Below, in pieces: positions 4,431 through 21,486 of a DNA stretch of 64,000 nt. Every line of letters starts with the position of its first letter. The stretch's first letter is position 1. The stretch is from Bradyrhizobium sp. (lineage in GTDB: Bacteria > Pseudomonadota > Alphaproteobacteria > Rhizobiales > Xanthobacteraceae): the NCBI RefSeq assembly GCF_047605465.1, contig NZ_JASGFS010000012.1, positions 22,214 through 86,213 on the forward strand. Direction: 5' to 3'. The notes below the pieces were generated by a model that saw nothing but the letters and a program-made list of their open reading frames with translations, made no database searches and was not told the DNA's origin. The position numbers were made by a program, and so were the translations under genes.

Positions 4431-4444
4431 GCTCGCCAGCCAAC

Positions 4445-4476
4445 GGGACGCGTCACGGCGTGCCGTGACGCGTCCC
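4445..4476. terminator. Strong inverted repeat between convergent genes (candidate bidirectional terminator)
   Basis: gggacgcgtcacggc-gt-gccgtgacgcgtccc has perfect 15-nt arms. It lies 15 nt after the ALDH stop and overlaps the last codons and stop of the MFS gene. There is no T-tract. Confidence 0.5.
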
Positions 4477-5613: not shown

Positions 5614-5877
5614 CGATGAACTCCGAACTAGAAGGGAACCACGCGATCGCGGGTGAGACCGGAATGCAGGATTCGGATGTGTGGTGTGGTTGTATCCGAC
5701 AGGGCATGACATCACGTCATGGGCATGGCGGCGCCGATGACAGATGGTCGCGGACACCTGAGTGAAGGCCGTGTCGTTCCGATGCGCGATCGCGCAGGGG
5801 CCAGATCAATCGCCGTCGCGTTCAGGCCGGATGCGTGGCTCGCCTCGCTATCTCACCATTGATTCGGTCTCAAGCCC

Positions 5878-6507: not shown

Positions 6508-7599
6508 TCAGCGCGGCAGATTCCGCATCGAGGGATGCGATCGCGCATATTGCGGCGGGAACGCCGCCCTTTGGCCGAGCTTCTCGGCCGCATGCCAGCT
6601 CCAGCGCGGATCGTAGGTCATGCCCCGGCCGATCGCGATCAGATCGGCCGCGCCGCTGTCGAGGATCTGTTCGGCATGCTGTCCGTCTCCGATCATTCCA
6701 ACAGCCATCGTGGCGATGCCGGCCTGCTCCCTGATCGCGGCCGAGAACGGCACCTGGTAGCCGGGCCCGACCGTGATCTTCTGTTCGGGCACCACGCCGC
6801 CGCTCGACGGCGTGACGTAATCGCACCCAAGGGCCTTGAGCTCCTTGGCGAACGTCACGGAAGCGTCGATGTCCCAGCCGCCGTCCACCCAGTCCGTCGC
6901 GGAAATGCGAACGCCGAGCGGCAGGTTTTCCGGCCACGCCGCGCGGACGGCCTTGAAGACCGAGAGCGGGAATTTCATCCGGCCCTCGATGTCGCCGCCA
7001 TAGGCGTCGGTGCGATCATTGCTCAGCGGCGAGAGGAAAGAGTTCAGGAGATAGCCGTGCGCGCAATGCAGCTCCAGCAAATCGAGGCCGGCTTCGTGCG
7101 CCCTGCGGGTGGCGGCAACGTAGTCGGCGGTCAGCTTCGCCAACGCGGCATCGTCGAGCGCTGCCGGTGTTCGCCGGCCGGGATAGGGCGTCGTCGACGG
7201 CCCGACGGTGTCCCAGCCTCCTTCGGCGACCGATAGCTCCTTGCCCGTGAGCCAGGGCGGTGCGACCGAAGCCTTGCGGCCCGCATGAGCGAGCTGGATT
7301 CCGATCTTCACACCGCCATGCGCGTGGGCGAAATCGGTCACGCGGCGCAGGCCCTCGACCTGCGCATCCGACCACAGGCCGAGGCACACGGGGCTGACCC
7401 GTCCGCTGGGCTGCACCGCGGTGGCCTCCATGATGACGAGGCCGGGGCCCGACACGGCCAGCGAGCCGATATGCATCAGGTGCCAATCTCCGGCCACGCC
7501 GCCGTCGATCGCCGAATACTGCGCCATCGGAGAGACGACGATGCGGTTGTCGAGTTGCAGGCCGCGGAGGGAGAACGGTGAGAAAAGGCTCGATGGCAT
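6508..7599 (-). CDS. NADH:flavin oxidoreductase / ene-reductase, Old Yellow Enzyme family (YqjM-like class)
   Basis: NRIVVSPMAQYS, IQLAHAGRKAS, ELHCAHGYLLNSFLSPLSNDRTDAYGG, ISATDWVDGGW, ADLIAIGRGMTYDPRW. I trimmed the start to ATG 7599 (MPSSLFSPFSLRGL). Confidence 0.9.
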   Translation of the reverse strand: MPSSLFSPFSLRGLQLDNRIVVSPMAQYSAIDGGVAGDWHLMHIGSLAVSGPGLVIMEATAVQPSGRVSPVCLGLWSDAQVEGLRRVTDFAHAHGGVKIGIQLAHAGRKASVAPPWLTGKELSVAEGGWDTVGPSTTPYPGRRTPAALDDAALAKLTADYVAATRRAHEAGLDLLELHCAHGYLLNSFLSPLSNDRTDAYGGDIEGRMKFPLSVFKAVRAAWPENLPLGVRISATDWVDGGWDIDASVTFAKELKALGCDYVTPSSGGVVPEQKITVGPGYQVPFSAAIREQAGIATMAVGMIGDGQHAEQILDSGAADLIAIGRGMTYDPRWSWHAAEKLGQRAAFPPQYARSHPSMRNLPR

Positions 7600-7652
7600 T
7601 GCTTGTGTCTTCTTCTGGCGTGGGACGTCGTGAGGTGCGGATATGACGGGGT

Positions 7653-8813
7653 TCAACTGCCGGCGAGCGGTTGCTCGTCCATCGTTCGCAGCCCCGCGGC
7701 CCATTTGTTCAGCCACCATCCGTATTGCTGGGGCCATGTCTCGAAGTGCTGTTCCGCGCCGAGAACCTCTGCCGCATGCCGCGCCCAGAACGGATTGAAG
7801 AGCATCTGGCGACCGATCGCGATCAGGTCGGCCTTGCCGTCCCTGAGAACCTGTTCGGCGAGTTGCGGCGTCCGGATGAATCCGACGGCCTGCGTGAGCG
7901 CGCCGGTTTCCTTGCGGATCCTTTCCGCGAAGGGCACCTGATATCCCGGCCCGCGGGTCAGGCTGGAGTTCGTTGCGCCGCCCGAGAGATTGCCGCCGGA
8001 CGAGCAGTCGATGACGTCGACGCCACGGCTGAGAAGCTCGCGCGAGAGCTCGACGCTGTCGTCCATCGTCCAGCCGCCATCGATCCAGTCGGTCGAGGAG
8101 ATGCGGACGAACAGCGGCACGCTGTCGGGAAGGGCGCGCCGAACTGCATCGGTGACCTCGAGCGGAAAGCGCATCCGGTTTTCCAGCGAGCCGCCGTATT
8201 CATCCGTGCGAATGTTGGCGAGCGGAGACAGGAAGCTCTGCAGCAGATAGCCGTGGGCCATGTGGATCTCGATGATCTCGAAGCCTGCATCGAGTGCGCG
8301 CAGCGCGGTCGCCACGAAGCCTTGCAGTGTCTCCTGCATGCCGGCGCGCGACAGGGCCTGAGGTACGAGCCATCCGTTTGCAAACGGCTTGTCCGATGGT
8401 CCCACCGGTGTCCAGGTTTCGTCGCCGTTGGCGATGTTCTGCGCGGTCAGCGGTCCGTTGCCTTCCCATGCCCGCTGAGCGCTTCCCTTCCGTCCGCCAT
8501 GCGCGATCTGAATGGCAGGTGCGGAGCCGTGGGATTTCAGCGCTGACGTGATCGGCCGCAGGGCCTCGACTTGCTTCTCTTCCCAAAGGCCGAGGCAGCC
8601 GTTTGTGATCCTGCCGTCGCGGGTGATCGCCGTTTCCTCGATGAAGACCGTGCCTGCTCCGCCCATCGCGAACTTGCCGTAGTGCAGCAAATGAAACTGC
8701 GTGGGATAGCCGTTCTCGGCGCAATACATCGCCATCGGCGACACGACGATCCGGTTTCGAAGCTCCAGCCCACGGATTTTCAGGGGCTGGAAAAGCAACG
8801 CTTTGCTCTGCAT
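7653..8813 (-). CDS. NADH:flavin oxidoreductase / ene-reductase, Old Yellow Enzyme family (tandem paralogue)
   Basis: NRIVVSPMAMYC, IQIAHGGRKGS, EIHMAHGYLLQSFLSPLANIRTDEYGG, ISSTDWIDGGW, ADLIAIGRQMLFNPFW. Confidence 0.9.
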   Translation of the reverse strand: MQSKALLFQPLKIRGLELRNRIVVSPMAMYCAENGYPTQFHLLHYGKFAMGGAGTVFIEETAITRDGRITNGCLGLWEEKQVEALRPITSALKSHGSAPAIQIAHGGRKGSAQRAWEGNGPLTAQNIANGDETWTPVGPSDKPFANGWLVPQALSRAGMQETLQGFVATALRALDAGFEIIEIHMAHGYLLQSFLSPLANIRTDEYGGSLENRMRFPLEVTDAVRRALPDSVPLFVRISSTDWIDGGWTMDDSVELSRELLSRGVDVIDCSSGGNLSGGATNSSLTRGPGYQVPFAERIRKETGALTQAVGFIRTPQLAEQVLRDGKADLIAIGRQMLFNPFWARHAAEVLGAEQHFETWPQQYGWWLNKWAAGLRTMDEQPLAGS

Positions 8814-8919
8814 GGGTCCTCCGAGGTGTTTTGTCGTCCGTGTCCTTGATGATCCGACGTGCCGGATTCGACCGGGCGATGAAGTTGGAAAACCGCCGTG
8901 CCGATAGGTCGCAGGAAAA

Positions 8920-8931
8920 GGAAACGTTTCA
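8920..8931. promoter_or_regulatory. LacI-family-type operator candidate, site 1 (GGAAACGTTTCA)
   Basis: Perfect 10-bp palindrome GAAACGTTTC with a central CG, 107 bp upstream of the OYE gene start at 8813. The 12-mer is the exact reverse complement of the site at 9120..9131. Confidence 0.5.
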
Positions 8932-9119
8932 AAACACCCATTAGGTTCTCGGTGATCGGCCTGTCAACCCATGAGCTCCGATGCGATCGACGGCAAAAGT
9001 AGCTCCCGGCCGCAATATGCAGGATTTGGCTCGAAAATGGCTGTAATTCGATGCCTCACGTTCTCCTGAATGGGGGCGGAGGGGCGCTTGACAGGCCGGT
9101 TGGGCTTGGCGTACTGCCT

Positions 9120-9131
9120 TGAAACGTTTCC
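9120..9131. promoter_or_regulatory. LacI-family-type operator candidate, site 2 (TGAAACGTTTCC)
   Basis: It has the same palindromic core, 110 bp upstream of the ABC-operon start at 9242. It lies just downstream of a TTGACA hexamer at 9088..9093, which is followed 17-18 nt later by only a weak -10-like gtactgc. The centre-to-centre distance to site 1 is exactly 200 bp. Confidence 0.5.
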
Positions 9132-9241
9132 AATCTGGCTTGGAGAAACGTGTATAGCTGCGGCCTCAGGGAGGTCCGCTGCGGGGAGTCTTGCGCGCGT
9201 GACGGCAATCGTCGGCGCCAATCAGAAACGAAAGGTGGAAA

Positions 9242-10426
9242 ATGAAGCTCTGTATTTCGTCGCGCTTTGCGATCGGCGCCAGCGTGTGTGCTCTGGCCCT
9301 CGGTGCCCTGGGCTCCGGCGCATTCGGCTGCGAAGTGACGATCGGCGCGACCGGTCCTCTGTCCGGTGCAGCCACTCAATGGGGCCTGGCGATCAAGGGC
9401 GCGGCCGACTTCGCTGCAGCCGAAGCCAATCGCGACGGCGGCGTCATGGTCGGCGGCCAGCGCTGCACGGTGAAGGTCATCGCGATCGACGCGAAATACA
9501 CCGCTGAAGGTGCTGCCGCTGCGGCGAACAATTTCGTCAGCCAGAACGTGAAGTTCATTCTCGGTCCGATCGGTTCGCCGGAAGTGACCGGCATGAAGCC
9601 CGTCGCGACCCGCAACAAGATGCTGATGATGAGCGACAGCTATGCAAAGGACGCGATCGGACCGCGCTGGCCCTACACGTTCCACGTGGGACCGGGGCCG
9701 CTCGCCTGGGGCGATCCGATCGTCAAGCTCGCCAAGGAAAAGTTCGGCATCAAGAAGGTGCTGACGATCGCGCCGAACGATCAGGCCGGAACGGACGTCG
9801 CCGAGGCCGCGATCAGCGTCTACAAGAAGAACGGGGTCGACGCGACGCCGGAATACTACCAGCGCGGCACGACGAACTTCGCTCCGATCGTCGCGCGCAT
9901 CATCAATGCCAATCCGGACGTGCTCGATACGGTCTCGACTCCGCCGGGAGACGCCGGAATCATCATCAAGCAGCTGCGCCAGGCTGGATTCAACGGTGCG
10001 ATCGGTCGCCTCGGCGGCCCGGGCACCGAGGAGATCCTGCGCATCGCCGGCGGTAAGGATGTGGTCAAGAACTTCTACTGGTTCGAGCCCGTCTTCATCG
10101 ACGAGAACGTCAAGAAGCTCGGCGACGAATATCGCCAGCTGCTCGGTTCGGCGCCGCCCGAGAACAACTTCTTCTATCTCTTCGCGGCGGGCGGCCGGGC
10201 CATGCTCAGGGCCATCACGGACGCTGGCTCAACCGACGACGTCGAGAAGGTGGCGGCTTCGCTTCGCAAGCTGAACGTCGACGACCCAAATCTCGGCAAG
10301 GGCCGCTGGATCGGGCAGGAGGCTTACGGGATCAACCAGGAACTGTCGCTGCCGTTCGGCGTCGGCCTGCTGATCGACGGCAAGGACCAGCCGCTGGTCC
10401 GCATCGAAGCACCCGACGGGAAGTAA
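9242..10426 (+). CDS. ABC transporter substrate-binding protein, LivK/Peripla_BP_6 (HAAT family) type
   Basis: N-terminal signal peptide (MKLCISSRFAIGASVCALALGALGSGAFG) and type-1 periplasmic binding fold signatures (IGATGPLSGAA..., KFILGPIGSPE, NFAPIVARIINANPDV). Confidence 0.85.
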   Translation: MKLCISSRFAIGASVCALALGALGSGAFGCEVTIGATGPLSGAATQWGLAIKGAADFAAAEANRDGGVMVGGQRCTVKVIAIDAKYTAEGAAAAANNFVSQNVKFILGPIGSPEVTGMKPVATRNKMLMMSDSYAKDAIGPRWPYTFHVGPGPLAWGDPIVKLAKEKFGIKKVLTIAPNDQAGTDVAEAAISVYKKNGVDATPEYYQRGTTNFAPIVARIINANPDVLDTVSTPPGDAGIIIKQLRQAGFNGAIGRLGGPGTEEILRIAGGKDVVKNFYWFEPVFIDENVKKLGDEYRQLLGSAPPENNFFYLFAAGGRAMLRAITDAGSTDDVEKVAASLRKLNVDDPNLGKGRWIGQEAYGINQELSLPFGVGLLIDGKDQPLVRIEAPDGK

Positions 10427-10460
10427 GCGGTCGATCGAGCGCAACGTTAAGGAACTTGGG

Positions 10461-11327
10461 ATGGACGGCTTTATTTCCGCTGGCCTGATCGGGCTTTCGC
10501 TTGGAGCGCAATACGCGCTGCTTGCGCTCGGTTTCACCCTCATCTTCGGCATTCTGGGGGTGGTGAACTTCGCCCATGGCGGGTTCTACCTCCTCGGAGG
10601 CTACTTCGCGTACGCCTGCGTCGCGAAGCTCGGCTTTCCCTATCCCGTGGCGGTGCTCGCTGCCACGGTAGCGACCGCCGCGATCGGCTACGTGTTCCAG
10701 CTTCTTCTGCTGGACCGCGTGGCCGACGACCATTTGGCAACCCTGATCCTGACTCTGGGTCTGTACATGGTGATCGGCAGCGGCGTGCTGGTGACCTTCG
10801 GTCCCGACGCGCCGTTGTTCCAGTTTCCGGTCAGCGGGGCGCTTCGCTTCCACGGGCTGTACTTCCCGCTCGAAAACTTCATCGTCCTGATCGTCTGCAT
10901 CCTGGCGATCGCTGCGACCTACTATTTCATCTACAAGACCAATCTCGGCAGAAACCTGCGGGCTCTGGCCGAGGATCGCACGGTGGCGGTGGCGCTCGGC
11001 GTCAAGGCCCGGCTGCTCTTTCCGATGGCGTTCGCCATCTCGGTCGGGCTGGCCGGCATGACCGGCGCGCTGGTCACGCCGATCCTGTCGCTGACGCCGC
11101 ATGTCGGTGATCCCGTGCTCGCGATGTCCTTCCTGGTCGTCATTCTCGGCGGCCTCGGAAGCATCGCCGGAGCGACGGTCGCCGCGTTCTGCGTCGGAAT
11201 CATCGAAGCCTATTCGGCGGTCTATGTCGGCGGCTCGAAGGGTGCGCTCGCGCTGTTCGTGCTGGTCCTGATCGTGCTGGTGGTGAAGCCGACCGGACTC
11301 TTCGGCCGCGAGACCCGGGGAGCATGA
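10461..11327 (+). CDS. Branched-chain-amino-acid-type ABC permease (LivH-like)
   Basis: Polytopic membrane protein with FTLIFGILGVVNFAHGGFYLLGGY and RALAEDRTVAVALGV motifs. Its stop overlaps the next start (ATGA). Confidence 0.9.
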   Translation: MDGFISAGLIGLSLGAQYALLALGFTLIFGILGVVNFAHGGFYLLGGYFAYACVAKLGFPYPVAVLAATVATAAIGYVFQLLLLDRVADDHLATLILTLGLYMVIGSGVLVTFGPDAPLFQFPVSGALRFHGLYFPLENFIVLIVCILAIAATYYFIYKTNLGRNLRALAEDRTVAVALGVKARLLFPMAFAISVGLAGMTGALVTPILSLTPHVGDPVLAMSFLVVILGGLGSIAGATVAAFCVGIIEAYSAVYVGGSKGALALFVLVLIVLVVKPTGLFGRETRGA

Positions 11328-12325
11328 TGGTGAAAGACAAATCCCTGATCGATCGCATCGGCGGGAACGAAATCGTGTCCCTGCTGCTGGTTGCGGCGGC
11401 GCTGCTGGTGCCGGTCTATGCGACCAACGCCGCGGTCATCTCCCTCTTTACGCAGATCCTGATCGCGCTGATGGGCGCGCTCAGCGTCTACATCATGCTG
11501 CGCATGGACCTCATGAGCTTCGCGGTGCCGGCCTTCATGGCGATCGGCGGCTATGCGGTGGCCATCGTCAGCGCAAGGTACGACGTGACGGACGTGTTCG
11601 CGCTTGCCGCCGTCAGCCTCCTCGTTCCGATGTTGATCGCTCTTCCGATCGGCGCGTTGATCCTTCGCCTGAGAGGCGTCTATTTCGTTCTGGTGACGTT
11701 CGTCATCGCCGAGATCATGCCGCTGCTGCTGTTCGAAACGCCGACCCTCACGGGTGGATCGAACGGAATCTCGGGCCTTCCTCCCGTGGTCTTCTTCGGC
11801 ATGCCGATCGAGGACAACAACAAGATCCTGCTGATGACGACCGTTCTCGCGGTCGTCGCGGTGCTCGGCACGATCGGGCTCACCCGATATTACCGGCATC
11901 AGTTCGACGCGATCAAAGAGAACGAGCTGCTCGCGCAGAGTCTCGGGCTGACGATATGGCGCTACAAGGTCATCGGCTTCTGCGCAGCCGCGGGCCTGGC
12001 CGGTCTCGGCGGCTTCTGCCTGGTCGAGATGCTGATCACCGCGCATCCAAGCTCGTTCCAGGCGATTTCCTCGGTTAACTACGTCGCTTACACCGTCGTC
12101 GGCGGCCAGGGAGCGCTGCTGGGCGCGGTCGTGGGCTCGGCGCTGCTGGTCTGGGCGTCCAACCTGTTCAGCCTTCAAGGCGAGTTTTCTCAGGGCCTGT
12201 TCGGCATTCTGCTGATGCTGGCGGTTCTCTTTGCCAAGGGCGGCTTGATCGGCAGCCTGCAGGGGATCCTTGCCCGAAGCCGCAAGTTCGCGCCGGCGGC
12301 ACGCAGCCAGGGAGCCGAGGCATGA
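11324..12325 (+). CDS. Branched-chain-amino-acid-type ABC permease (LivM-like)
   Basis: Polytopic membrane protein. LRLRGVYFVLVTFVIAEI and TGGSNGISGLP are typical of LivM. It is translationally coupled on both sides. Confidence 0.9.
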   Translation: MMVKDKSLIDRIGGNEIVSLLLVAAALLVPVYATNAAVISLFTQILIALMGALSVYIMLRMDLMSFAVPAFMAIGGYAVAIVSARYDVTDVFALAAVSLLVPMLIALPIGALILRLRGVYFVLVTFVIAEIMPLLLFETPTLTGGSNGISGLPPVVFFGMPIEDNNKILLMTTVLAVVAVLGTIGLTRYYRHQFDAIKENELLAQSLGLTIWRYKVIGFCAAAGLAGLGGFCLVEMLITAHPSSFQAISSVNYVAYTVVGGQGALLGAVVGSALLVWASNLFSLQGEFSQGLFGILLMLAVLFAKGGLIGSLQGILARSRKFAPAARSQGAEA

Positions 12326-13071
12326 CGCAGCCCGTAACTCTCGAGATCAAGAACGCATCCAAGCGGTTTGGCGGCAACAGCGTTTTCCGCGACATCAGCC
12401 TGTCGCTCGAGCCGGGAACGGTGAAGGGCGTGATCGGGCCGAACGGCGCCGGCAAGACGACGCTGATCAACATCATGTCCGGCCAGCTCGCCCCGAGCGA
12501 TGGCAGCATCCTGCTCGGGGGCAAGGATATCACCGCCTTGCCGCTGCACCGGCGCAGCCAGCTCGGCATCGTGCGTAGCTTCCAGCAGACGAAGACGTTC
12601 AAGACGGCAACGGTCGCCGAAAACTTCGAGCGGGCCAGCCTGTTCAGCCAGGGCAGGGTGTCCTCGATCGAGGGCTATGTCCGTGACCTGATCGCCAAAT
12701 GCGGCCTCACCAACCGGCTCGACCAGAACAGCGATACACTGCCGTATGGCATGCAGAAGATGCTCGGCCTGCTGATGACCGTGATCACGGGACCGAAGAC
12801 GCTCCTGCTGGACGAGCCGGCGGCTGGCCTCGAGAAGCAGGAACGCCATCTCATCGACGAGGTCGTGCAATCCGCATGCGCCAATTTGGGTTGCGGAGTC
12901 CTGATCGTCGAGCACGACATGGAGCTCATCAAGCGGCTGTGTCCTTACGTCTACGTGCTCGATCGCGGCACGATCATCGCGCATGGCGATCCCGCGACTG
13001 TTCTGAGGCGCAAGGACGTGATCGAGGCCTATCTCGGTACGGCCGAGGAGGGGGAGAGCCTCGATGCTTAA
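12322..13071 (+). CDS. ABC transporter ATP-binding protein (LivG-like)
   Basis: Walker A GPNGAGKTT, signature-like LPYGMQKMLGL, Walker B LLLDEPAAGL, H-loop IVEHDM, C-terminal EAYLG. Confidence 0.9.
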   Translation: MTQPVTLEIKNASKRFGGNSVFRDISLSLEPGTVKGVIGPNGAGKTTLINIMSGQLAPSDGSILLGGKDITALPLHRRSQLGIVRSFQQTKTFKTATVAENFERASLFSQGRVSSIEGYVRDLIAKCGLTNRLDQNSDTLPYGMQKMLGLLMTVITGPKTLLLDEPAAGLEKQERHLIDEVVQSACANLGCGVLIVEHDMELIKRLCPYVYVLDRGTIIAHGDPATVLRRKDVIEAYLGTAEEGESLDA

Positions 13072-13756
13072 GATCAAGGATCTCGTCGTCCGCTATGGCG
13101 GCATCACCGCGCTCGACCGCGTCTCCGCCGAGGTCGGCAAGGGCGAGACGGTCATCCTGCTTGGCGCAAACGGGGCGGGGAAGTCGAGCCTGATCAACTC
13201 CATCATCGGCGTCGTTCCTTCGGCCGCCGGCGTGATCCAGCTCGACGATCGGACCATCAGCCAGTCGCCCGCTTCGAGCCGGGCCGGGTTCGGCATCGGA
13301 TATTCGCCGGAAGGCCGTCGCGTCTTCCCGACCATGACCGTGCGCGACAATGTGCTGGTCGGGGCTGCGCGTCTGGGCCGGGCGGCCCAGGCCGAAGCCT
13401 ATGGCAGGCTGGCGGCGCTGTTTCCCATGCTCGAAGGCCGCGCCAACGATCTCGCAGGTCACCTCAGTGGGGGACAACAGCAGATCGTGGCGATCGCGCG
13501 CGCGATGAGCGCGTCTCCGCGCCTGCTGTTGCTGGACGAGCCTTTCCTCGGCCTGGCTCCGGTCTGGATCCAGCAGATCAGCTCGGCGATCCGCCACTTC
13601 GCCGCGGCCGGCACGACCATCCTAATGACGGAGCAGATGGCCATTCCGGCGCTGAAGGTCGCGACGCGCGGCTATGTCATGCGGGGCGGCCAGATCATCC
13701 GCGGCGGCACCGTCGATGACATCAAGGAATCGGCTCTCACGGAGGATTACCTCTAA
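13064..13756 (+). CDS. ABC transporter ATP-binding protein (LivF-like)
   Basis: Walker A GANGAGKSS, signature LSGGQQQIVAIARA, Walker B LLLLDEPFLGLAP. Confidence 0.9.
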   Translation: MLKIKDLVVRYGGITALDRVSAEVGKGETVILLGANGAGKSSLINSIIGVVPSAAGVIQLDDRTISQSPASSRAGFGIGYSPEGRRVFPTMTVRDNVLVGAARLGRAAQAEAYGRLAALFPMLEGRANDLAGHLSGGQQQIVAIARAMSASPRLLLLDEPFLGLAPVWIQQISSAIRHFAAAGTTILMTEQMAIPALKVATRGYVMRGGQIIRGGTVDDIKESALTEDYL

Positions 13757-14637
13757 TGGCAAAGCCCGACGCTGGCCAACATCCGGAGCCGCAGTACCGG
13801 CTCTATGCGATCCACTATGCATCCAGCAATCCGGACCGGTCGGCCGACCACAATTTCATGTCCCGCGTCGACTTCCACGACATGCCGATGCCGCTGGATT
13901 TCTTCGTGTGGGTCGCCATCGGGGAAGGGCGCGTCATCCTGATCGACACCGGCGCCGAAGAGCACATCTGCCGCACGCGCGGCCATAACTACATGCGCTC
14001 CCCGGCCGATGGATTGGCCGCCCTCGGCCATGCGCCGGAGGACGTGACGGACGTTGTCGTGACGCACATGCACTGGGATCACCTTGGGCATCTGGCGCAG
14101 TTTCCCAATTCCCGCATTCACGTCCACAAGCAGGAGATGTCGCACGCCACCGGCTGCGCCATGTGTCACGAACAGCTCCGCCGCCCCTACGACGTGACGC
14201 AGGTGTGCAGCCTCATCGTTGCCCTCTACGGTGGACGGGTCTCGTTCACCGAGGAGAGCGCGGAGATCGCGCCGGGCGTGTCGGTGCGCCATGTCGGCGG
14301 GCACGCTCCCGGCCTTCAGGTTGCCCAAGTGCGCACGAAGCGCGGGAAGGTCCTGGTGGCATCCGATGCGATGCACTACTTCGCGAACTCCATCCTGACC
14401 AATCCCTATCCGGTGGTCGTCAACGTTCAGGAATATCTGGACGGTCTGGTCCAGGTCGAAAAGCTCGCGGATGGACCGGATCACGTCGTTCCGGGTCACG
14501 ACCCGCTCGTCAAGTCGATGTACCCGGCGCTGGAGAAGGCGCCGTACATCTTCGACCTCGGCGTTCCTCCGCGCGTCCCGCGGCCGCTCACCGTCTCCGG
14601 GTTCGTCGGCGCCTACGGGCCATCGAAACAAGCCTGA
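13756..14637 (+). CDS. MBL-fold metallo-hydrolase, N-acyl-homoserine-lactonase family-like
   Basis: HxHxDH zinc motif (VVTHMHWDHLGH), upstream VILIDTG, and downstream His/Asp ligand candidates (RHVGGHAPG, VASDAMHY, VPGHDP). The start overlaps the LivF-like stop by 1 nt (TAATG). Confidence 0.8.
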   Translation: MAKPDAGQHPEPQYRLYAIHYASSNPDRSADHNFMSRVDFHDMPMPLDFFVWVAIGEGRVILIDTGAEEHICRTRGHNYMRSPADGLAALGHAPEDVTDVVVTHMHWDHLGHLAQFPNSRIHVHKQEMSHATGCAMCHEQLRRPYDVTQVCSLIVALYGGRVSFTEESAEIAPGVSVRHVGGHAPGLQVAQVRTKRGKVLVASDAMHYFANSILTNPYPVVVNVQEYLDGLVQVEKLADGPDHVVPGHDPLVKSMYPALEKAPYIFDLGVPPRVPRPLTVSGFVGAYGPSKQA

Positions 14638-14668
14638 ATTAATCTCCAAGCAGCGTCACAGGTCTAAA

Positions 14669-16096
14669 ATGCAGGATTACGATCGTCTGGGACTTCAGCT
14701 CATCGATGGCGAATGGTTGGAGTCGGAGTCCAAGTTTCCCGTGCTCGACAAGTTCTCGGGGCGGGAATTCGCGCGCGTCCATTCCGCGACGCGCGAACAG
14801 GTCGCGCACGCGGTCAAGGTCGCCAAGCGCGCCGCCGACGCTGGCTGTCCGGCACCTTACGAGCGGGCGCGGGCCTTGTACGAGGCGTCGCGCCTGATCC
14901 ATGCCCACAAAGAGCAGTTCGTCGACCTGATGGTCGCGGAAGCCGGCTTCACGATCGCGGACGCCGGCGGCGAAGTCGATCGTGCCAAGGTGACGCTCGA
15001 ACTGTCCGCCGAAGTGGCGAAGAACATCGTCGGCAGCGTCGTGCCGTTCGGCGCGAGCCCGGGCGCCGAGCGCAGGATCGGCTTCACCGTCCGCGATCCC
15101 GTCGGTGTCGTCTGCGCGATCACGCCGTTCAATTCGCCACTGAACACGGTGCTTCACAAGATCGGCCCGTCGTTCGCGGCCGGAAATGCCACCGTCCTGA
15201 AGCCGTCTTCGGAGACGCCGCTGACGGCGGGGCTGCTCGGCAAATTGCTGCTGCAGGCGGGCATGCCGAAGGACTTCCTCAGCGTCATCCAGGGGCCGGG
15301 GACCGTCGGCGAATGGCTGCTCGCAGAACAGGACATCGGGTTCTACACCTTCACCGGAAGCACCCGCGTCGGCCGTTACATCCAGGATCATGCCGGCCTT
15401 CGCCGGACGCAGATGGAACTGGGCAGCATCGCCAGCACCATCCTGTGCGCGGACGGAGATCTGTCCAACGCGATCCCGAAGACCGCCAATGCGGGTCTTC
15501 GCAAGGCGGGCCAGGTCTGTACGTCGGTCCAGCGCCTCTATGTCCAGGACTCGATCTATGACGAGACCCTTGAGCGGCTCGTCAAGGAAGCCCGTGCACT
15601 GAAGAGCGGCGACCCCCGGGATCCCGCGACACGTGTCGGTCCGTTGATCTCGGAGCGCGCGGCGCAGCGCGGCGAGCAGTGGATCAAGGATGCCGTGGAC
15701 GCGGGCGCACGGCTCGTATGCGGCGGCAAGCGCGACGGCCGCGTACTCGAGCCGACCATCCTCGCCGACGTGCCGGAAGCCTGCTCCGCCTGGTGCCAGG
15801 AGGCATTCGCGCCGCTGCTGGTGCTGCGGCGGTTCTCCCGCTTTGAGGAGGCGCTCGAAAGCGCCAACGACACGCCATACGGCCTGTCGGTCGGCGTCTT
15901 CACCCGTGACATCACGACGGCGCTGACGGCGGTCAGGAAGTTCCGTTTCGGGACGGTGCAGATCAACGAGACATCGAGCGCGCGGGCGGACGTGATGCCG
16001 TTCGGAGGCGTGAAGGAGAGCGGTTTCGGCAAGGAAGGACCGGCCTATGCCGCGCTCGAAATGACGGTGGAGCGCCTCATCGTGCTCAATCCCTGA
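14669..16096 (+). CDS. NAD(P)+-dependent aldehyde dehydrogenase
   Basis: ITPFNSP, FTGSTRVG, MELGSIAS, KAGQVCTSVQR (catalytic Cys), EAFAP, PFGGVKESGFGKEG. I chose the start at ATG 14669 (MQDYDRLGLQLIDGEW). The listed ORF (from 14471) overlaps the previous gene in another frame. Confidence 0.9.
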   Translation: MQDYDRLGLQLIDGEWLESESKFPVLDKFSGREFARVHSATREQVAHAVKVAKRAADAGCPAPYERARALYEASRLIHAHKEQFVDLMVAEAGFTIADAGGEVDRAKVTLELSAEVAKNIVGSVVPFGASPGAERRIGFTVRDPVGVVCAITPFNSPLNTVLHKIGPSFAAGNATVLKPSSETPLTAGLLGKLLLQAGMPKDFLSVIQGPGTVGEWLLAEQDIGFYTFTGSTRVGRYIQDHAGLRRTQMELGSIASTILCADGDLSNAIPKTANAGLRKAGQVCTSVQRLYVQDSIYDETLERLVKEARALKSGDPRDPATRVGPLISERAAQRGEQWIKDAVDAGARLVCGGKRDGRVLEPTILADVPEACSAWCQEAFAPLLVLRRFSRFEEALESANDTPYGLSVGVFTRDITTALTAVRKFRFGTVQINETSSARADVMPFGGVKESGFGKEGPAYAALEMTVERLIVLNP

Positions 16097-16138
16097 GCCG
16101 ACCGAAGCCGCAAGACCGAACACAGGACCATTCCGACA

Positions 16139-17296
16139 ATGCAAACGATCTCGAGTTACTTCTGTCCGACCCGCGTCTACATGGGCGCCGGAAGCCATCG
16201 ACAGTTGCCCGAATTCCTCCGCGAATACGATTGCAAGCGCCTGTTCCTGGTCATGGATGGCGCGCTGAAGAGCACCGATTTCGCGAAGTCCGTTCTTGCG
16301 CTCCTCGCCGAGAGCAAGATCGAGGTGTCGACCTTCACCGAGATCGAGCCGGATCCGAGCGCCGGCACCGTGGAGAAGGCCTTCGCGCAGTGCCAGGGCA
16401 GCAAGGCGACCACGATCCTGGCCATCGGTGGCGGCAGCACGATCGACGTCGCCAAGGCCGTCGGCATCCTGAGCACCAATGGCGGCCGCATCCATGACTA
16501 CGAGGGGATCGAGAAGTTCAAGACCCCGCCATTGCCGCTGATCGCGATTCCGACCACCGCCGGAACGGGCTCGGAAGTGTCCGGGTCCTGCGTGATCACG
16601 GATACCGAACGCGAACTGAAAATGTCGATCCGGCATGCTTCGCTGAATCCGGCCCGCATCGCGATCCTCGATCCGTCCGCCTTGCGTACGATCCCGCCGA
16701 CGGTGGCCTGCCACGCGGGCGTGGATGCATTCGTGCACGCCTTCGAGTCCTTCATCTCGCGCAACGCCAATCCGTTCACGGATGCGGTGAACATCGAGGC
16801 GATCCGGTTGCTGTCCGCGAACCTGCGGCCGTTTGTCGCCAATCCCGCTAACGAGACGGCCGCGCTCAACATGCTCTGCGGCTCCGCGCTTGCCGGCATG
16901 GCCTTCGGACAGACCGGCCTCGGCAACGTTCATTGCATGTCGAGGTTCGTCGGAGCCCGCTTCCACCTGTCCCACGGACTCTCGAACGCGCTCTGCCTGC
17001 CCACGGTCGCGCGCTTCAACATGATCGCGAATCCCCAAAAATATGCGCGCGTAGCCGAAGCGATGGGCTACGACGTGTTCGGTCTTCCGGAGATCGAGGC
17101 GGCGCGGATCGCCGTGGAGCAGATCGGCGAAATGTGCGCTGATCTCGGGATTCCGGCGCGGCTCCGGGACGCCGGCGTGACCGAAGACAGCCTCGAAGAA
17201 ATGGCCAGGCAGTGCACCGACGCCAACTACAATCGCTGGAATCCCCGGTTCACCAGCACGTCGGACTTCCTGGGACTTTTCCGGCAAGCCTATTGA
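16139..17296 (+). CDS. Iron-containing (group III) alcohol dehydrogenase
   Basis: ILAIGGGSTIDVAKAV, IAIPTTAGTGSEVS, and metal-ligand His motifs (HAGVDAFVHAFES, GNVHCMS...HLSHGLSNA). Confidence 0.9.
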   Translation: MQTISSYFCPTRVYMGAGSHRQLPEFLREYDCKRLFLVMDGALKSTDFAKSVLALLAESKIEVSTFTEIEPDPSAGTVEKAFAQCQGSKATTILAIGGGSTIDVAKAVGILSTNGGRIHDYEGIEKFKTPPLPLIAIPTTAGTGSEVSGSCVITDTERELKMSIRHASLNPARIAILDPSALRTIPPTVACHAGVDAFVHAFESFISRNANPFTDAVNIEAIRLLSANLRPFVANPANETAALNMLCGSALAGMAFGQTGLGNVHCMSRFVGARFHLSHGLSNALCLPTVARFNMIANPQKYARVAEAMGYDVFGLPEIEAARIAVEQIGEMCADLGIPARLRDAGVTEDSLEEMARQCTDANYNRWNPRFTSTSDFLGLFRQAY

Positions 17297-17358
17297 CAGG
17301 TGTCGTCGCCAACTAGCAATTCGTGGGTGCGAAGCCGGTTGCGACAGAAAGCTGAGTC

Positions 17359-18411
17359 GTGAACTCGAAGGACAAGTCTGGCGCCCAGGGCAAGCGGAAG
17401 CGCATTACGGCGCGAGACGTGGCCCGCAAGGCCAAGTGTGCGCTCGGGACCGTTTCCCGGGTCGTCAACGATGTGCCGGGCGTTTCTCCGGAGACGCGCC
17501 AGCGCGTGCTCGACGCGATGGAATCCCTCGGGTGGGTGCCGAACGTTGCTGCGCAGAGCATGCGCGGCATGTCCTCGCGGATGGTCGGGTTCATTTTCTC
17601 CGACATCCGCAATCCGCTCTATGCCGCCATGGTCAAGGGGGCGGAGGACGTCTTCAGCGCCAACGGCTTCCTGCTCGTCACGGCGACCAGCAACAGCGAA
17701 GCCGACCGCGAAATCGCCCTGATCGAGCTGTTTCGGCGCCGCCATGCCGATGCTTTGCTGTTCTCCATCACGCAGGAGAGCGACAAGCGCGTCGTCGAGG
17801 CGGTCGAGGCGTCGAAGCTGCCGATCGTGATGATCGAGCGCGATCTTCCGATCCCCGTCGATTCCGTCGGGGCCGATCATCTCAGCGGCACGCGCCATGC
17901 GACAGAGCACCTCATTCAGCTCGGGCATCGCCGGATCGCGATCATCAGCGGCGGCAAGGGCACGCGCGTGGCTCGCGATCGCTTGCTGGGCTTCAATCAG
18001 GCGATGCGCGCCGCGGGGCTGAAATCCGACGAGAGCCTGCTGCATCTCGAGAGCTTCGCGTCCGAATACGCCTACCGGAAAACCCAGTGGCTGCTGTCGC
18101 TCGACAAGCCGCCGACCGCGATCCTCGCGCTTGGAATGCGCTTGCTGCCCGGTGTGCTTGCCGCCGTGCGGGCCTGCGGTCTCTCCGTGCCTTCTGACAT
18201 TTCGATCATCGCGGGAAACGACAGCAATCTCGCCCAGATGATGACGCCGCCGGTCACGGCGATCCGCTACGACCCCGAAGCGCTCGGGCGCGAGGCCGCT
18301 CTCGCGATATTGGCGCAAGTCGAGAGCAGCTCGGGTTCGGCCTCTCCGCGGCGCCTGGAGATTCCAACCGAGCTGGTTCTGCGGGGATCCTGCGGCCCGC
18401 CCAAGAAGTAG
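17359..18411 (+). CDS. LacI family transcriptional regulator
   Basis: N-terminal HTH (ITARDVARKAKCALGTVSRVVND...VSPETRQRVLDAMESLGWVPNVAAQSMR) followed by a periplasmic-binding-like sugar-binding core. GTG start, last gene of the 9.2-18.4 kb same-strand array. Confidence 0.9.
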   Translation: MNSKDKSGAQGKRKRITARDVARKAKCALGTVSRVVNDVPGVSPETRQRVLDAMESLGWVPNVAAQSMRGMSSRMVGFIFSDIRNPLYAAMVKGAEDVFSANGFLLVTATSNSEADREIALIELFRRRHADALLFSITQESDKRVVEAVEASKLPIVMIERDLPIPVDSVGADHLSGTRHATEHLIQLGHRRIAIISGGKGTRVARDRLLGFNQAMRAAGLKSDESLLHLESFASEYAYRKTQWLLSLDKPPTAILALGMRLLPGVLAAVRACGLSVPSDISIIAGNDSNLAQMMTPPVTAIRYDPEALGREAALAILAQVESSSGSASPRRLEIPTELVLRGSCGPPKK

Positions 18412-18452: not shown

Positions 18453-19370
18453 TCAGCCCGACCGCTTCTGCTTCACGCGCTTGCGGGCTTCGGGCCGCAT
18501 CGACCGGATGGTTTCGAGGAACGCCTGCAGGATCGGCGAGGCGTCGTCGCGACGATAGATGCAATTGAAGTCGACGGTGACCGGTGGCGATTCCGCGAGC
18601 CCCCGGAAGACGACGCCGGGCAATGTGAGCTGTGCGACGGTGGCCGGCACCAGCGAGACGCCGAAGCCTGCGGCCACGAGCGCCACCGCGGTTACGGAGT
18701 CGTCGACTTCCTGTGCGATTTCGGGTTGAAACCCGCTATCGAGGCAAAGCCCGAAGACCATGTCCATCAGATTGGGCCTGGGTCCACTGGCGAAGATCAC
18801 CATCGGGCGATCGGCGATCTGCTTCAGCGCCACCGATGATTGGGCGCATAGCGGATCGGCCGCGTTGAGGGCGACCATCAGCGGTTCGCTCCTTACCTTC
18901 TCGTTGGCGATGCCCGCAAGCTTCAGGCCCAGCAGGTTGAACCCGACGGTGACGCGGCGATCGTACAAGGCCTGCAACTGCTCTTCCTTGTTCATCGCGT
19001 GGACGATGACCTCGATGTCCGGATATTGCATGCGAAACATGCGCAGCAATTCCGGCACGGCCAGGATGTTCGATCCGAACAGGCCGATGTCGAGGCGTCC
19101 GGATTGCCCGAGCCCGGCCCGCTTGGTGCGTTCGCGGGCGCGGGCCGCGAGGACAAGCAGGTTGCGCGCTTCCTCGAACAGCACCTGACCGGCATCGGTC
19201 ATCTGAACGCCCCTGCGCGTTCGCTGGAACAGCGTCGCGCCGATCTCGGCTTCGAGCTGGTGGATCTGCCGCGTCAGCGGAGGCTGCGAGATATTCAGCC
19301 GCCGCGCGGCCCGCCCGATATTGGCCTCCTCGGCCACAGCAACGAAATAACGCAACCGCGTCAGGTCCAT
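18453..19370 (-). CDS. LysR family transcriptional regulator
   Basis: MDLTRLRYFVAVAEEANIGRAARRLNISQPPLTRQIHQLEAEIGATLFQRTRRG is a canonical LysR HTH. It has a LysR substrate-binding C-terminus. Confidence 0.9.
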   Translation of the reverse strand: MDLTRLRYFVAVAEEANIGRAARRLNISQPPLTRQIHQLEAEIGATLFQRTRRGVQMTDAGQVLFEEARNLLVLAARARERTKRAGLGQSGRLDIGLFGSNILAVPELLRMFRMQYPDIEVIVHAMNKEEQLQALYDRRVTVGFNLLGLKLAGIANEKVRSEPLMVALNAADPLCAQSSVALKQIADRPMVIFASGPRPNLMDMVFGLCLDSGFQPEIAQEVDDSVTAVALVAAGFGVSLVPATVAQLTLPGVVFRGLAESPPVTVDFNCIYRRDDASPILQAFLETIRSMRPEARKRVKQKRSG

Positions 19371-19384
19371 GAGATTGCTCCGAC

Positions 19385-19399
19385 ATACCCAAAAGGTAT
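19385..19399. promoter_or_regulatory. LysR-type T-N11-A box (ATACC-N5-GGTAT)
   Basis: Perfect dyad ATACCcaaaaGGTAT, 15 bp upstream of the lysR start, in the divergent lysR/tctC-like intergenic region. Confidence 0.5.
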
Positions 19400-19513
19400 C
19401 GTGATGAGCCTTAACACATATTGGACGGTATCGAAACGGCCAGCTATTGCAGTGTCCAACGTCCGCGTCGTGAAAAAAGCGGACGAGGGAGGATAGCGAA
19501 GTTGCGACAGAGG

Positions 19514-20482
19514 ATGCTTCTCAGGCTTGGCGGTATGGTGCTGGCGGCGGTGACGGCCGGCGGAGTCGTTTCGGGCGCGCTCGCGGCGGATTATCCGACG
19601 CGTGTGGTGCGGATCATCGTGCCCTATGCGCCCGGCGGATCGGCCGGAGCCCAGGCGCGAACGCTCGCCGAAGAACTGAGCCGCATCTGGAAACAGCAGG
19701 TTGTCGTCGAGGACAAGCCGGGGGCGGGCACCACGATCGGCGCGGCCTATGTCGCGGGCTCCGCGCCTGATGGGTATACGCTGTATCTCGCCGGGACGTC
19801 GCACACGATCTCGCCCAGTCTCTACAGCAACATCAAATATGACGCCGTGAAGAGTTTCGCGCCGGTCTCGCGATTGGCGACGTCGCCGTTCATCTGGCTG
19901 GTCAATCCGACGCTCGGCGTCAATTCCATCGCCGATTTCGTCGCGCTTGCGAAGAGCAAGCCCGGTCAGCTGAACTACAGCACCTCCGGTGTCGGTGCGG
20001 GCCCGCATCTTGCGGCCGAGATGATGAAGGCCGCGGGCAAGATCGACATCAAGCACGTTCCCTTCCGCGGCTCGGCTCCGGCGATGACGGCGCTGCTCGG
20101 GAATTTCGTCGAGTTCAGCATGGGCGATGTCAGCGCGCTGCCGACGGTGAAGGCAGGCAGCCTGAAGGCGCTCGCCGTCACGACCGCCACGCGGTTCTCG
20201 GAACTACCTGATGTCCCGACCCTCGACGAAACCATTCAGAAGGGCCTGAACGTCACCAACTGGAGCGCAATTCTGGCGCCGGCCGATACGCCGCCGGAAC
20301 TGGTCAAGTTCATCAACGGCTCCATCATGAAGGCGCTGGAATCGCCGGACTTGAAGAAATCGTTCCAGGCCCAGGGCTTCGAGCCGGCGCCGAGCACGCC
20401 GGAGGAGCTCCGTGATTTCATGACGGCGGAAGTCGCGAAATATCGCGACGTGATCGAAAAGGCCGGGATCAAGTCTGAATGA
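19514..20482 (+). CDS. Tripartite tricarboxylate transporter substrate-binding protein (Bug/TctC family)
   Basis: Signal peptide followed by AADYPTRVVRIIVPYAPGGSAGAQAR, YSTSGVGAGPHLAAE, and VPFRGSAPAMTALLGN, which are family hallmarks. I trimmed the start to ATG 19514. Confidence 0.85.
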   Translation: MLLRLGGMVLAAVTAGGVVSGALAADYPTRVVRIIVPYAPGGSAGAQARTLAEELSRIWKQQVVVEDKPGAGTTIGAAYVAGSAPDGYTLYLAGTSHTISPSLYSNIKYDAVKSFAPVSRLATSPFIWLVNPTLGVNSIADFVALAKSKPGQLNYSTSGVGAGPHLAAEMMKAAGKIDIKHVPFRGSAPAMTALLGNFVEFSMGDVSALPTVKAGSLKALAVTTATRFSELPDVPTLDETIQKGLNVTNWSAILAPADTPPELVKFINGSIMKALESPDLKKSFQAQGFEPAPSTPEELRDFMTAEVAKYRDVIEKAGIKSE

Positions 20483-20518
20483 CGTCGTCAGCTTGGTGAA
20501 TCAGCAAAGGAAGCCAAA

Positions 20519-21394
20519 ATGAGACTGGTATCGTTTGAACGCGGCGGCGCCTCCCATTACGGAGCCGTCAAGGGTGACAAGGTCGTGGACCTCAGCACCA
20601 GGCTGGGCGGCACGCACCCCACCATCGTCGATTTCATCGCCAAGGACGGCGTGCGGCTCGCGGCGCCGATCGTCACCGCCGAAAAGGGCGATTTCGAGTA
20701 CGACAAGTTGAAGCTGCTTCCGGTGGTGCCGAATCCGGCTCACATCATCTGCGTCGGCCTGAACTATCACGACCACATCAACGAGGCGAACAAGCAGCTC
20801 AGCCGCACGGACAAGGGGTTCGAGCGCCCGATGATCTTCGCGCGCTGGCCGGAATCCCTGACGGCGCACAATCAGCCGATCTTCCGTCCGAAGGTTTCGC
20901 ACCAGCTCGACTACGAAGCCGAGCTTCTCGTCGTGATCGGAAAGGACACCGGCCGCTACGTCAAGGCCGACAAGGCGCTCGACTATGTCTTCGGCTATTC
21001 GTGCCTCAACGAGGCGTGCCTGCGCGACTACCAGCGTCACAGCCGGCAGATCAATCCGGGCAAGAACTTCGAGCGAACCGGTGCGACCGGACCCTGGCTC
21101 GTGACCGCCGACGAGATCAAGCACCCGGAAAATCTCCTGATCGAGATGCGCCTGAACGGCCAGGTGATGCAGAAGGCCAATACCAGCGACATGATCCATT
21201 CGGTGGCGCAGGTCATCGAATACGTCACGGAATGGATGCCGCTGCGCCCGGGCGACCTGATCGCGAGCGGTACGATGGGCGGAGTCGGATTTGCCCGTGA
21301 CCCGCAGGTCTTCATGAAGCCGGGCGATGTCGCCGAAGTCACGATCGAAGGCATCGGGACGCTACGCAACGAGATCGCAGACGACCGTTTCTGA
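20519..21394 (+). CDS. Fumarylacetoacetate hydrolase (FAH) family protein
   Basis: IICVGLNYHDH, LDYEAELLVVIGK and PGDLIASGTMGGVG are the typical FAH-family metal-binding and C-terminal motifs. Confidence 0.85.
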   Translation: MRLVSFERGGASHYGAVKGDKVVDLSTRLGGTHPTIVDFIAKDGVRLAAPIVTAEKGDFEYDKLKLLPVVPNPAHIICVGLNYHDHINEANKQLSRTDKGFERPMIFARWPESLTAHNQPIFRPKVSHQLDYEAELLVVIGKDTGRYVKADKALDYVFGYSCLNEACLRDYQRHSRQINPGKNFERTGATGPWLVTADEIKHPENLLIEMRLNGQVMQKANTSDMIHSVAQVIEYVTEWMPLRPGDLIASGTMGGVGFARDPQVFMKPGDVAEVTIEGIGTLRNEIADDRF

Positions 21395-21412
21395 TCGCGA
21401 CGTCGGTCGCGA
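21395..21412 (+). terminator. Short hairpin immediately after the FAH-family stop codon
   Basis: tcgcgac-gtcg-gtcgcga has a perfect 7-bp stem and a 4-nt loop, with no T-tract. It could be an attenuator, a processing site or coincidence. Confidence 0.25.
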
Positions 21413-21486
21413 GACAATCTCTTGAGCTCCAGCGGCAGAGCCGTCGTTGGAGAGCAATTCCTGCTGACCAGATAAAGGAATGATCC

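Follow-up and report, generated by a model that had tools for sequence, protein, structure and literature searches.

We examined a 64,000-nucleotide stretch of a Bradyrhizobium sp. genome (NCBI RefSeq GCF_047605465.1, contig NZ_JASGFS010000012.1, positions 22,214 to 86,213; hereafter, the window), in which a block at 6508-18411 forms a self-contained catabolic unit of 11 genes and 11.9 kb. According to the open reading frame (ORF) listing, nine co-directional genes occupy the + strand from 9242 to 18411. They encode the five parts of a HAAT-family ATP-binding cassette (ABC) importer, a metallo-β-lactamase (MBL)-fold hydrolase, an aldehyde dehydrogenase (ALDH), an iron-type alcohol dehydrogenase (Fe-ADH), and a LacI-type repressor, and a pair of ene-reductase genes of the Old Yellow Enzyme (OYE) class diverges from them (Table 1). 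The original prediction for this DNA, a reading of the letters, had described the nine-gene part as a rewired blc/att lactone operon. Its family assignments all hold in Pfam and NCBIfam, including the LacI helix-turn-helix (HTH) of the regulator, and its statement that overlaps or gaps do not exceed 62 nt agrees with junctions of 34, −4, −4, −8, −1, 31, 42, and 62 nt (with the ALDH start at 14669). The count of ten same-strand genes was one too many, as the prediction's own list also sums to nine. The genes within its proposed extent of 9242-18411 are real, but that extent left out the divergent OYE pair and the operators.

Table 1. Genes and predicted operators of the catabolic unit, with positions in the window.
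Feature	Position	Strand	Basis or remark
Second ene-reductase (OYE, YqjM/XenA class), 363 aa	6508..7599	-	Pfam Oxidored_FMN 1e-60; NCBIfam NamA 338 bits
First ene-reductase (OYE, YqjM/XenA class), 386 aa	7653..8813	-	Pfam Oxidored_FMN 2e-67
Predicted LacI-type operator 1, core GAAACGTTTC	8919..8932		106 nt upstream of OYE start codon
Predicted LacI-type operator 2	9119..9132		110 nt upstream of SBP start; just after TTGACA hexamer at 9088
HAAT-family periplasmic substrate-binding protein (SBP)	9242..10426	+	Pfam Peripla_BP_6 9e-50
HAAT permease, LivH/UrtB-like	10461..11327	+	Pfam BPD_transp_2 6e-35
HAAT permease, LivM/UrtC-like	11324..12325	+	Pfam BPD_transp_2 2e-27
ABC ATPase, LivG-like	12322..13071	+	Pfam ABC_tran + BCA_ABC_TP_C
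ABC ATPase, LivF-like	13064..13756	+	Pfam; stop overlaps MBL start
MBL-fold lactonase-like hydrolase, predicted cytoplasmic, distinct family	13756..14637	+	Pfam Lactamase_B
NAD(P)-dependent ALDH, 475 aa	14669..16096	+	Pfam Aldedh 2e-135
Group III iron-type alcohol dehydrogenase (Fe-ADH)	16139..17296	+	Pfam Fe-ADH + ADH_Fe_C
LacI/GalR-family repressor, last gene of the operon	17359..18411	+	Pfam LacI HTH + Peripla_BP_3/1

The limits of the unit follow from two orthologous loci, one in a metagenome-assembled genome (MAG; L017) and one in B. cenepequi (L001), the closest relative with a species name. Because nucleotide homology to these loci (89% and 79%, respectively) starts at about 6505 and stops at 18405, we define an 11-gene, 11.9-kb unit. 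The left limit coincides with the stop codon of the second OYE gene and the right limit lies within a few bases of the LacI stop codon; the flanking genes differ among the genomes. The nine-gene operon shares this unit with the OYE pair (6508-8813) and the operator region (8814-9241). Within that operon, the importer is attached to the enzymes, as had been claimed: the LivF-like ATPase and MBL genes share a TAATG stop/start overlap with GGAGG upstream, which would couple the importer translationally to the hydrolase. Two start sites needed attention. The longest ALDH ORF begins at 14471, overlapping the MBL gene, but translation more likely starts from the ATG at 14669, yielding the 475 residues found in relatives; for the second OYE, the longest ORF extends to 7737, and relatives have 363 residues. 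A promoter scan called no sigma-70-like promoter, and terminator-like sites occurred at chance level (9 versus 8.4 expected). None of the nine + strand proteins reached a curated NCBIfam equivalog cut-off, neither the importer proteins (Liv or Urt) nor the ALDH and Fe-ADH, so homology assigns no substrate, consistent with the earlier view that the substrate cannot be deduced from sequence.

The 428-bp spacer between the OYE and SBP genes carries two predicted LacI-type operators spaced 200 bp apart, the second being the reverse complement of the first over 12 bp. Even with one mismatch allowed, the GAAACGTTTC 10-mer has 2 matches in the 64-kb window, both in this spacer. The operator pair recurs in the same spacer of L001 and L017. 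At locus L003, where the OYE genes follow the LacI gene and all genes lie on one strand, a single intergenic site is found 63 nt before the SBP gene. Among more distant orthologous loci, a search for the core found none in L018, L019, L020, L021, L004, and L027, and no convincing palindrome emerged when the promoter regions of L018, L019, and L020 were scanned. The regulator is a LacI/GalR protein by its N-terminal LacI HTH, its periplasmic-binding-protein-like effector domain, and a predicted operator with a central CG. In the window's clade, which is described below, each of the seven members has an orthologue of this regulator (50-96% identity) alongside the enzymes.

We modeled the MBL protein with AlphaFold (AF2) from 31 homologues, at a mean predicted local distance difference test score (pLDDT) of 85.5. 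MBL lactonases and their methyl-parathion-hydrolase (MPH) offshoots take all of the top 29 places among its PDB structure matches (Z 19-29), and B3 β-lactamases rank lower (Z ≤16). The best match is the N-acyl-homoserine lactone (AHL) lactonase of Pseudomonas poae (8x78; Z 28.9, 23% identity), followed by GcL, AaL, AhlX, AiiB, AiiA, and 4-pyridoxolactonase. The predicted HMHWDH motif is present as THMHWDH. The metal ligands H104, H106, D108, H109, H183, D204, and H248 are shared without exception by all 77 family members and align with those of BlcC from blcR-blcABC of Agrobacterium fabrum C58 pAtC58 (locus L105), a system that we compared directly with the window proteins. Equally invariant (77/77) is His207, three residues past the bridging Asp, a position held by Tyr in AttM/BlcC, AiiB, and 8x78; the position corresponds to that of the active-site Tyr194 of AiiA. 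All curated NCBIfam lactonase models score far below their cut-offs (AidB, 62 of 360 bits; AiiA, 52 of 375; AttM/BlcC, NF045700, 36.7 of 390), and the window protein is the 11th best AttM-model match in its own genome. No signal peptide was found in the protein, and ESM Atlas look-ups of it and of the SBP gave generic names only. The expected placement among known lactonases therefore stands in part: the modeled fold falls within the lactonase structural clade, but the protein belongs to a separate, uncharacterized family, with BlcC outside it in the tree. Hydrolysis of a lactone or an ester is likely. The host genome encodes three MBL paralogues at 41-43% identity. Beside one of them (41%; locus L108, G000 contig C1:246000-266000) lie two PrpD-like genes and two HAAT importer gene sets, so the association of hydrolase, PrpD, and HAAT importer recurs in the same genome.

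The catalytic Cys claimed for the ALDH is Cys284, which aligns together with Glu250 and Asn155 with the corresponding residues of BlcA. The best PDB matches of the ALDH are Burkholderia ALDHs, ALDH21, and GabD, and its PDB neighbors include succinate-semialdehyde dehydrogenases (SSADHs); those of the Fe-ADH are methanol and 1,3-propanediol dehydrogenases. Both ene-reductases are Oxidored_FMN TIM barrels nearest to YqjM, TOYE, and XenA (the "thermophilic-like" class), and their PDB relatives, TOYE/chromate reductase, XenA, and YqjM, match at E values of 1e-105 to 1e-78; for the first OYE, the matches to chromate reductase/TOYE and XenA span 1e-104 to 1e-82. Orthologues of the first OYE occur in six related loci at 58-94% identity, and those of the second lie beside the MBL gene at 60-90% identity in L017, L001, L003, L018, L019, and L020. 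XenA reduces coumarins, and by analogy ene-reductases can act on unsaturated lactones. Since two such enzymes belong to the regulon, an unsaturated substrate is implied, a feature that the original prediction missed together with the genes.

The importer is of HAAT type by its Peripla_BP_6 binding protein, two BPD_transp_2 permeases, and two ATPases. The SBP has a signal-peptide-like N-terminus and matches PDB entries weakly (best E 1e-10); its orthologues, at 61-97% identity, are found in L017, L001, L003, L018, and L027. Across orthologous clusters the importer changes type, which had likewise been overlooked. A HAAT system is present in loci of the Bradyrhizobium type, L003, and L018, while the Hoeflea loci carry a divergent TRAP system with a second ALDH and an AidB-like second MBL protein, and Candidimonas carries TctC proteins, the upstream one nearest to BugD (PDB 2f5x, E 2e-83). 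The SBP of the Hoeflea TRAP system has nothing in the PDB closer than E 1e-20. Because orthologous clusters use TRAP and TctC importers, which are of carboxylate type, neutral gamma-butyrolactone (GBL) or AHLs are argued against as the main substrate. In Hoeflea olei (L019:3445-9291), the genes divergent from the enzyme operon encode a betaine-aldehyde-dehydrogenase-like ALDH, a DctPQM TRAP transporter, and the second MBL protein, which scores 221 bits against the AidB lactonase model (cut-off 360). Loci of Rhodobacterales and Alcaligenaceae hold counterparts 49% identical to this TRAP SBP, each at a distance of 3 kb from an MBL homologue.

To place the unit among its relatives, we scanned species-representative genomes, which yielded 80 MBL loci with 10-kb flanks, located homologues of all window proteins in these loci by tblastn, and built a maximum-likelihood family tree that included BlcC, with SH-like approximate likelihood ratio test (SH-aLRT) support; the nine loci scored for both Fe-ADH and ALDH come from two 83-member sets. 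A search of 300 other Bradyrhizobium species genomes returned no MBL orthologue at a threshold of E 1e-90, and 400 genomes sampled across the phylum gave none that exceeded about 45% identity. The module is rare in Bradyrhizobium, an accessory trait, and was probably acquired horizontally. Its mobility is supported by the neighborhood in B. cenepequi, which differs from that of the window: there (L001:14836-20840) a Zn-ADH comes after the module, along with a soluble di-iron monooxygenase cluster of the phenol/methane type.

The gene combination is more than chance, as the same genes adjoin in at least eight other loci of different taxa. Within the window's wider clade (MBL identity at least 56%), 9 of 10 loci have orthologous ALDH (56-97%) and Fe-ADH (61-96%) genes, the one locus that lacks them being that of Achromobacter (L008). 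The seven-row clade to which the window belongs (SH-aLRT 99) has retained LacI and both OYEs as well, in three arrangements: the OYE genes lie divergent upstream in the window, L017, and L001; after LacI in L003 and L018; and between Fe-ADH and LacI in Hoeflea (L019, L020). The ALDH and Fe-ADH genes of L018 are additionally shifted in front of the importer. An apparent Fe-ADH-OYE fusion in L019 (a 776-aa ORF) was rejected, as the frame holds the OYE domain only.

Farther away, a locus of an Acidobacteriota MAG (L027) combines an MBL protein at 53% identity and an orthologous HAAT importer (SBP 61%) with a Zn-ADH, a 644-aa OYE/Pyr_redox enoate reductase, and an aldehyde:ferredoxin oxidoreductase in the other roles. 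The oxidoreductase is of the tungsten type, and the locus looks like an anaerobe's version of the pathway; the region (L027:4942-20557) also holds a sodium:solute symporter, an Amidohydro_3 protein, and an Asp/Glu racemase. Members of Actinomycetota, Acetobacteraceae, and Rhodobacterales account for 19 wider-family loci in which a single conserved Zn-ADH (57-64% identity between phyla) accompanies the MBL gene, mostly together with an ALDH. What recurs is a functional set of a hydrolase, an alcohol dehydrogenase, an aldehyde oxidizer, and an enzyme that works on a C=C or C-C bond adjacent to a carboxyl group. No other evidence speaks as strongly for a hydrolysis step that frees a primary alcohol on the carbon skeleton, to be oxidized subsequently to an acid.

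A lead toward the product comes from genes beside the orthologous enzymes. In an uncultured beta-proteobacterium (L021:7062-13634), tcuA and tcuB directly precede MBL, ALDH, and Fe-ADH genes as five contiguous genes on one strand, with orthologue identities of 60%, 56%, and 63% for the three enzymes. The flavoprotein of L021 scores 763 bits against the TcuA tricarballylate-dehydrogenase model (NF006130, cut-off 369 bits), and one from Actinoallomurus scores 572 bits. By gene order, the L021 arrangement would tie the enzyme trio to tricarballylate oxidation. At L003, TcuA and TcuB (CitB) genes lie about 1 kb past the OYE pair, behind a GntR gene; in Hoeflea L020, TcuA is 10 kb away; and, of 77 family loci, about 20 have a TcuA-like gene no farther than 10 kb away. 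Pairs of MmgE/PrpD genes, a tricarboxylate dehydratase family, replace or join TcuAB in Candidimonas, Achromobacter, Rhodobacterales, and the Bradyrhizobium paralogue locus. We also considered co-occurrence of TcuA with the host as a test. TcuA is encoded elsewhere in the host genome and in 98 of the 101 Bradyrhizobium genomes searched; we rejected this test, as near-universal presence in the genus is compatible with the link and does not discriminate. Because TcuA/TcuB and PrpD neighbors occur with TctC and TRAP importers, a carboxylated substrate and a tricarboxylate product, such as tricarballylate, are suggested; judged from relatives' neighborhoods, we regard this as possible rather than probable.

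In the reading that we favor, at a probability of roughly 55%, the module imports an unsaturated lactone or hydroxy acid, saturates its C=C bond, opens the ring, and oxidizes the product to a di- or tricarboxylic acid. The LacI repressor would bind the two inverted GAAACGTTTC operators and shut both divergent promoters, that of the OYE pair and that of the nine-gene operon, until the substrate or an intermediate released it. The HAAT system would import a small polar compound with an activated C=C bond and a lactone (or an ester or omega-hydroxy acid), probably also bearing a carboxylate. The two YqjM/XenA-class ene-reductases would saturate one or two activated double bonds, either on the unsaturated lactone or later, on an enal made by the ADH. 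The cytoplasmic di-metal MBL hydrolase would open the ring and expose a primary alcohol, which the Fe-ADH would convert to an aldehyde and the ALDH to a new carboxylate. The resulting di- or tricarboxylate would enter central metabolism; one candidate for it is tricarballylate or an analogue, to be converted to cis-aconitate by the TcuAB of the host. Candidate substrates, by way of speculation, are butenolides, dihydropyranones, and alpha-methylene-butyrolactones, especially carboxylated ones, or ring-opened hydroxy-enoates. More tentatively still, the module and its wider family may constitute an undescribed cross-phylum pathway for carboxylated, often unsaturated lactones, built on a His-for-Tyr subfamily of MBL lactonases, whose product, tricarballylate or a close analogue formed by ring opening followed by two oxidations, would be handled by TcuAB or PrpD-type enzymes.

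Several points weigh against this reading. The data show which genes are present, the limits of the unit, its operator sequences, the fold and metal site of the hydrolase, and a conserved linkage in which parts have been swapped or replaced; the sequence of reactions, the view that the substrate is a lactone, and what the product is are what we infer, and co-transcription of the nine genes is read from their spacing alone. Since the enzymes reach no curated equivalog cut-off, they bring no substrate assignment, and the SBP, with its weak PDB matches and generic names, gives no ligand clue. HAAT systems classically carry amino acids, urea, or amides, and LacI regulators usually sense sugars or nucleosides. 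With His207 in place of the lactonase Tyr, lactonase chemistry is not guaranteed. The GAAACGTTTC core was not found in L018 or the Hoeflea loci. The link to tricarballylate is circumstantial: the Bradyrhizobium module lacks TcuAB, and in L003 the TcuAB genes follow a separate GntR gene.

Of the competing explanations, the one proposed originally is a rewired blc/att module that would chiefly convert GBL and gamma-hydroxybutyrate (GHB) to succinate and quench AHLs on the side. The same three superfamilies as in blcABC are indeed present, as had been claimed, the nearest solved structures of the MBL protein are AHL lactonases, and SSADHs are among the PDB neighbors of the ALDH. The background of the claim is also correct: the blc operon converts GBL via GHB to succinate semialdehyde under the IclR-type regulator BlcR (PMC5924552; pAtC58 annotation). 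However, the window proteins are 24%, 35%, and 34% identical to BlcC, BlcA, and BlcB, respectively, and the low AttM score is matched by 307 of 646 bits for the ALDH against the SSADH model TIGR01780 and 229 of 500 bits for the Fe-ADH against the 4-hydroxybutyrate dehydrogenase model. BlcC sits on a very long branch outside the family, the two ene-reductases conserved in the regulon would be superfluous for GBL, and orthologous clusters rely on TRAP or TctC importers. At the residue level, the Tyr-to-His exchange is accompanied by two differences in the alignment with BlcA (TVLHK for MITRK and KEGP for REGS). These are positions that we take to be substrate-carboxylate contacts in SSADH. We consider this explanation improbable. 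A somewhat better case, though still an unlikely one, is an MBL esterase acting on an imported ester of an unsaturated polycarboxylate, such as an aconitate, itaconate, or fumarate mono-ester: the OYEs would reduce the alkene, the Fe-ADH and ALDH would dispose of the released small alcohol, and the acid would pass to TcuAB or PrpD-type enzymes. OYEs generally prefer ester- or carbonyl-activated alkenes, phosphotriesterases and aryl-ester hydrolases have also evolved from within the lactonase clade, the TcuAB, PrpD, and TctC neighbors point to tricarboxylates, and methanol and propanediol dehydrogenases are the best PDB matches of the Fe-ADH. Group III ADHs, however, are about 35-40% identical to one another, so the methanol-dehydrogenase match carries little specificity, and an ADH and an aldehyde oxidizer are kept with the MBL gene across phyla despite changes of family, which fits oxidation of the main skeleton better.

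The amino-acid type of the importer could instead indicate homoserine lactone or a related amino-lactone, opened to homoserine and oxidized via aspartate semialdehyde to aspartate. This would agree with the Candidimonas TctC protein, whose nearest PDB entry, BugD, is an aspartate-binding protein, and with the Asp/Glu racemase and amidohydrolase of the Acidobacteriota locus, but it leaves two conserved ene-reductases, TcuAB, and PrpD without a role. Neither the ALDH nor the Fe-ADH matches an enzyme family for homoserine or aspartate semialdehyde, and the usual ligands of TRAP systems are organic acids, not cationic amino-lactones; we judge this route to be very improbable. Least credible is that the importer, the enzymes, and the OYE pair are mere neighbors serving unrelated functions. 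Variation of the importer type among orthologous loci would allow for this, and we give it almost no weight: the block is kept with sharp homology boundaries in differing flanks, the enzymes remain together through three rearrangements, the predicted operators are shared by both transcription units, and the last importer gene overlaps the MBL gene stop to start.

Beyond this locus, the conserved partners of the MBL family (alcohol and aldehyde dehydrogenases, C=C redox and tricarboxylate enzymes, and carboxylate importers) point to nutrient catabolism rather than quorum quenching. Hundreds of its proteins are labelled "N-acyl homoserine lactonase family protein" in databases, and if they serve catabolism, this label misleads genome-based claims of quorum quenching. 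If the tentative tricarballylate pathway is real, it would be the first physiological source of this acid other than aconitate reduction and fumonisin-type esters. A compact module with its own importer, repressor, and operators is also tractable for substrate finding, with the binding protein and repressor as ligand sensors, and a natural ene-reductase/lactonase/ADH/ALDH cascade has possible use in biocatalysis.

Further genes surround the module in the window. On the left, outside the block shared with L017 and L001, lie another ALDH gene (2946-4430, + strand; Pfam 2e-159) and a 438-aa ORF (4391-5707, - strand) with no Pfam match at the threshold used. Just beyond the left edge, a 178-aa ORF without a Pfam match (5878-6414) could mark an insertion junction. 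On the right, a convergent LysR gene directly follows the module, and then come genes for a TctC-family binding protein, an FAA-hydrolase-family protein, and hydantoinase/oxoprolinase A; this region (18453-23622) is a separate cluster, not common to L017 or L001.

Literature searches for a cluster of this composition found nothing, and several known systems share parts of its logic. With blcABC it has in common an MBL-fold lactonase, an Fe-type hydroxy-acid dehydrogenase, and an ALDH that together lead from a lactone to a dicarboxylate under repressor control. The identities to the Blc proteins, however, are ordinary superfamily-level values, and BlcC joins the maximum-likelihood tree on a branch of 6.45 substitutions. 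The regulator is of LacI rather than IclR type, the genes run MBL-ALDH-Fe-ADH instead of A-B-C, and the window module adds a dedicated importer, two ene-reductases in the regulon, and His for the lactonase Tyr. Because of the low identities, the AttM score, and the BlcC branch, the resemblance lies in chemistry and not in descent, that is, in convergent use of the same steps. Of the original interpretation, the type of chemistry (lactone to hydroxy acid to aldehyde to acid) is therefore retained, but not the kinship with blc. The quorum-quenching MBL lactonases (8x78, GcL, AaL, AhlX, AiiB, and AiiA) and 4-pyridoxolactonase share the alpha-beta/beta-alpha fold with the window protein at Z 23-29 over about 240-257 residues, along with a complete HxHxDH...H...D...H di-metal site. 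They differ in their 19-23% sequence identity and, for AttM, AiiB, and 8x78, in the Tyr at the position of His207, AidB being the best-scoring curated model, and the window family has ADH, ALDH, and C=C redox enzymes as its genomic partners instead of quorum-sensing genes.

The tcuRABC system of Salmonella serves tricarballylate utilization. Its likeness to the present case lies in the true TcuA/TcuB genes that immediately precede the orthologous trio in L021 and occur in its vicinity in L003 and L020, an order that suggests that the trio may feed a tricarboxylate into the TcuAB step. The Bradyrhizobium module differs in having no tcu genes, with TcuA elsewhere in the genome, and the link runs through the neighborhoods of relatives only. 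A further parallel, compared by description only, is the cyclohexanol/caprolactone pathway of Acinetobacter, in which ChnC, ChnD, and ChnE act as lactone hydrolase, Fe-type omega-hydroxy-acid dehydrogenase, and omega-oxo-acid ALDH to give adipate. The logic of lactone hydrolase, Fe-type dehydrogenase, and ALDH leading to a dicarboxylate is shared, but ChnC is an alpha/beta hydrolase, the lactone is made by a Baeyer-Villiger monooxygenase that the window module does not encode, and the chn pathway has no importer or ene-reductases. The kind of pathway that runs from lactone through hydroxy acid and aldehyde to acid is thus already known; what the Bradyrhizobium module adds to it are ene-reductases, an importer of its own, and a LacI switch.

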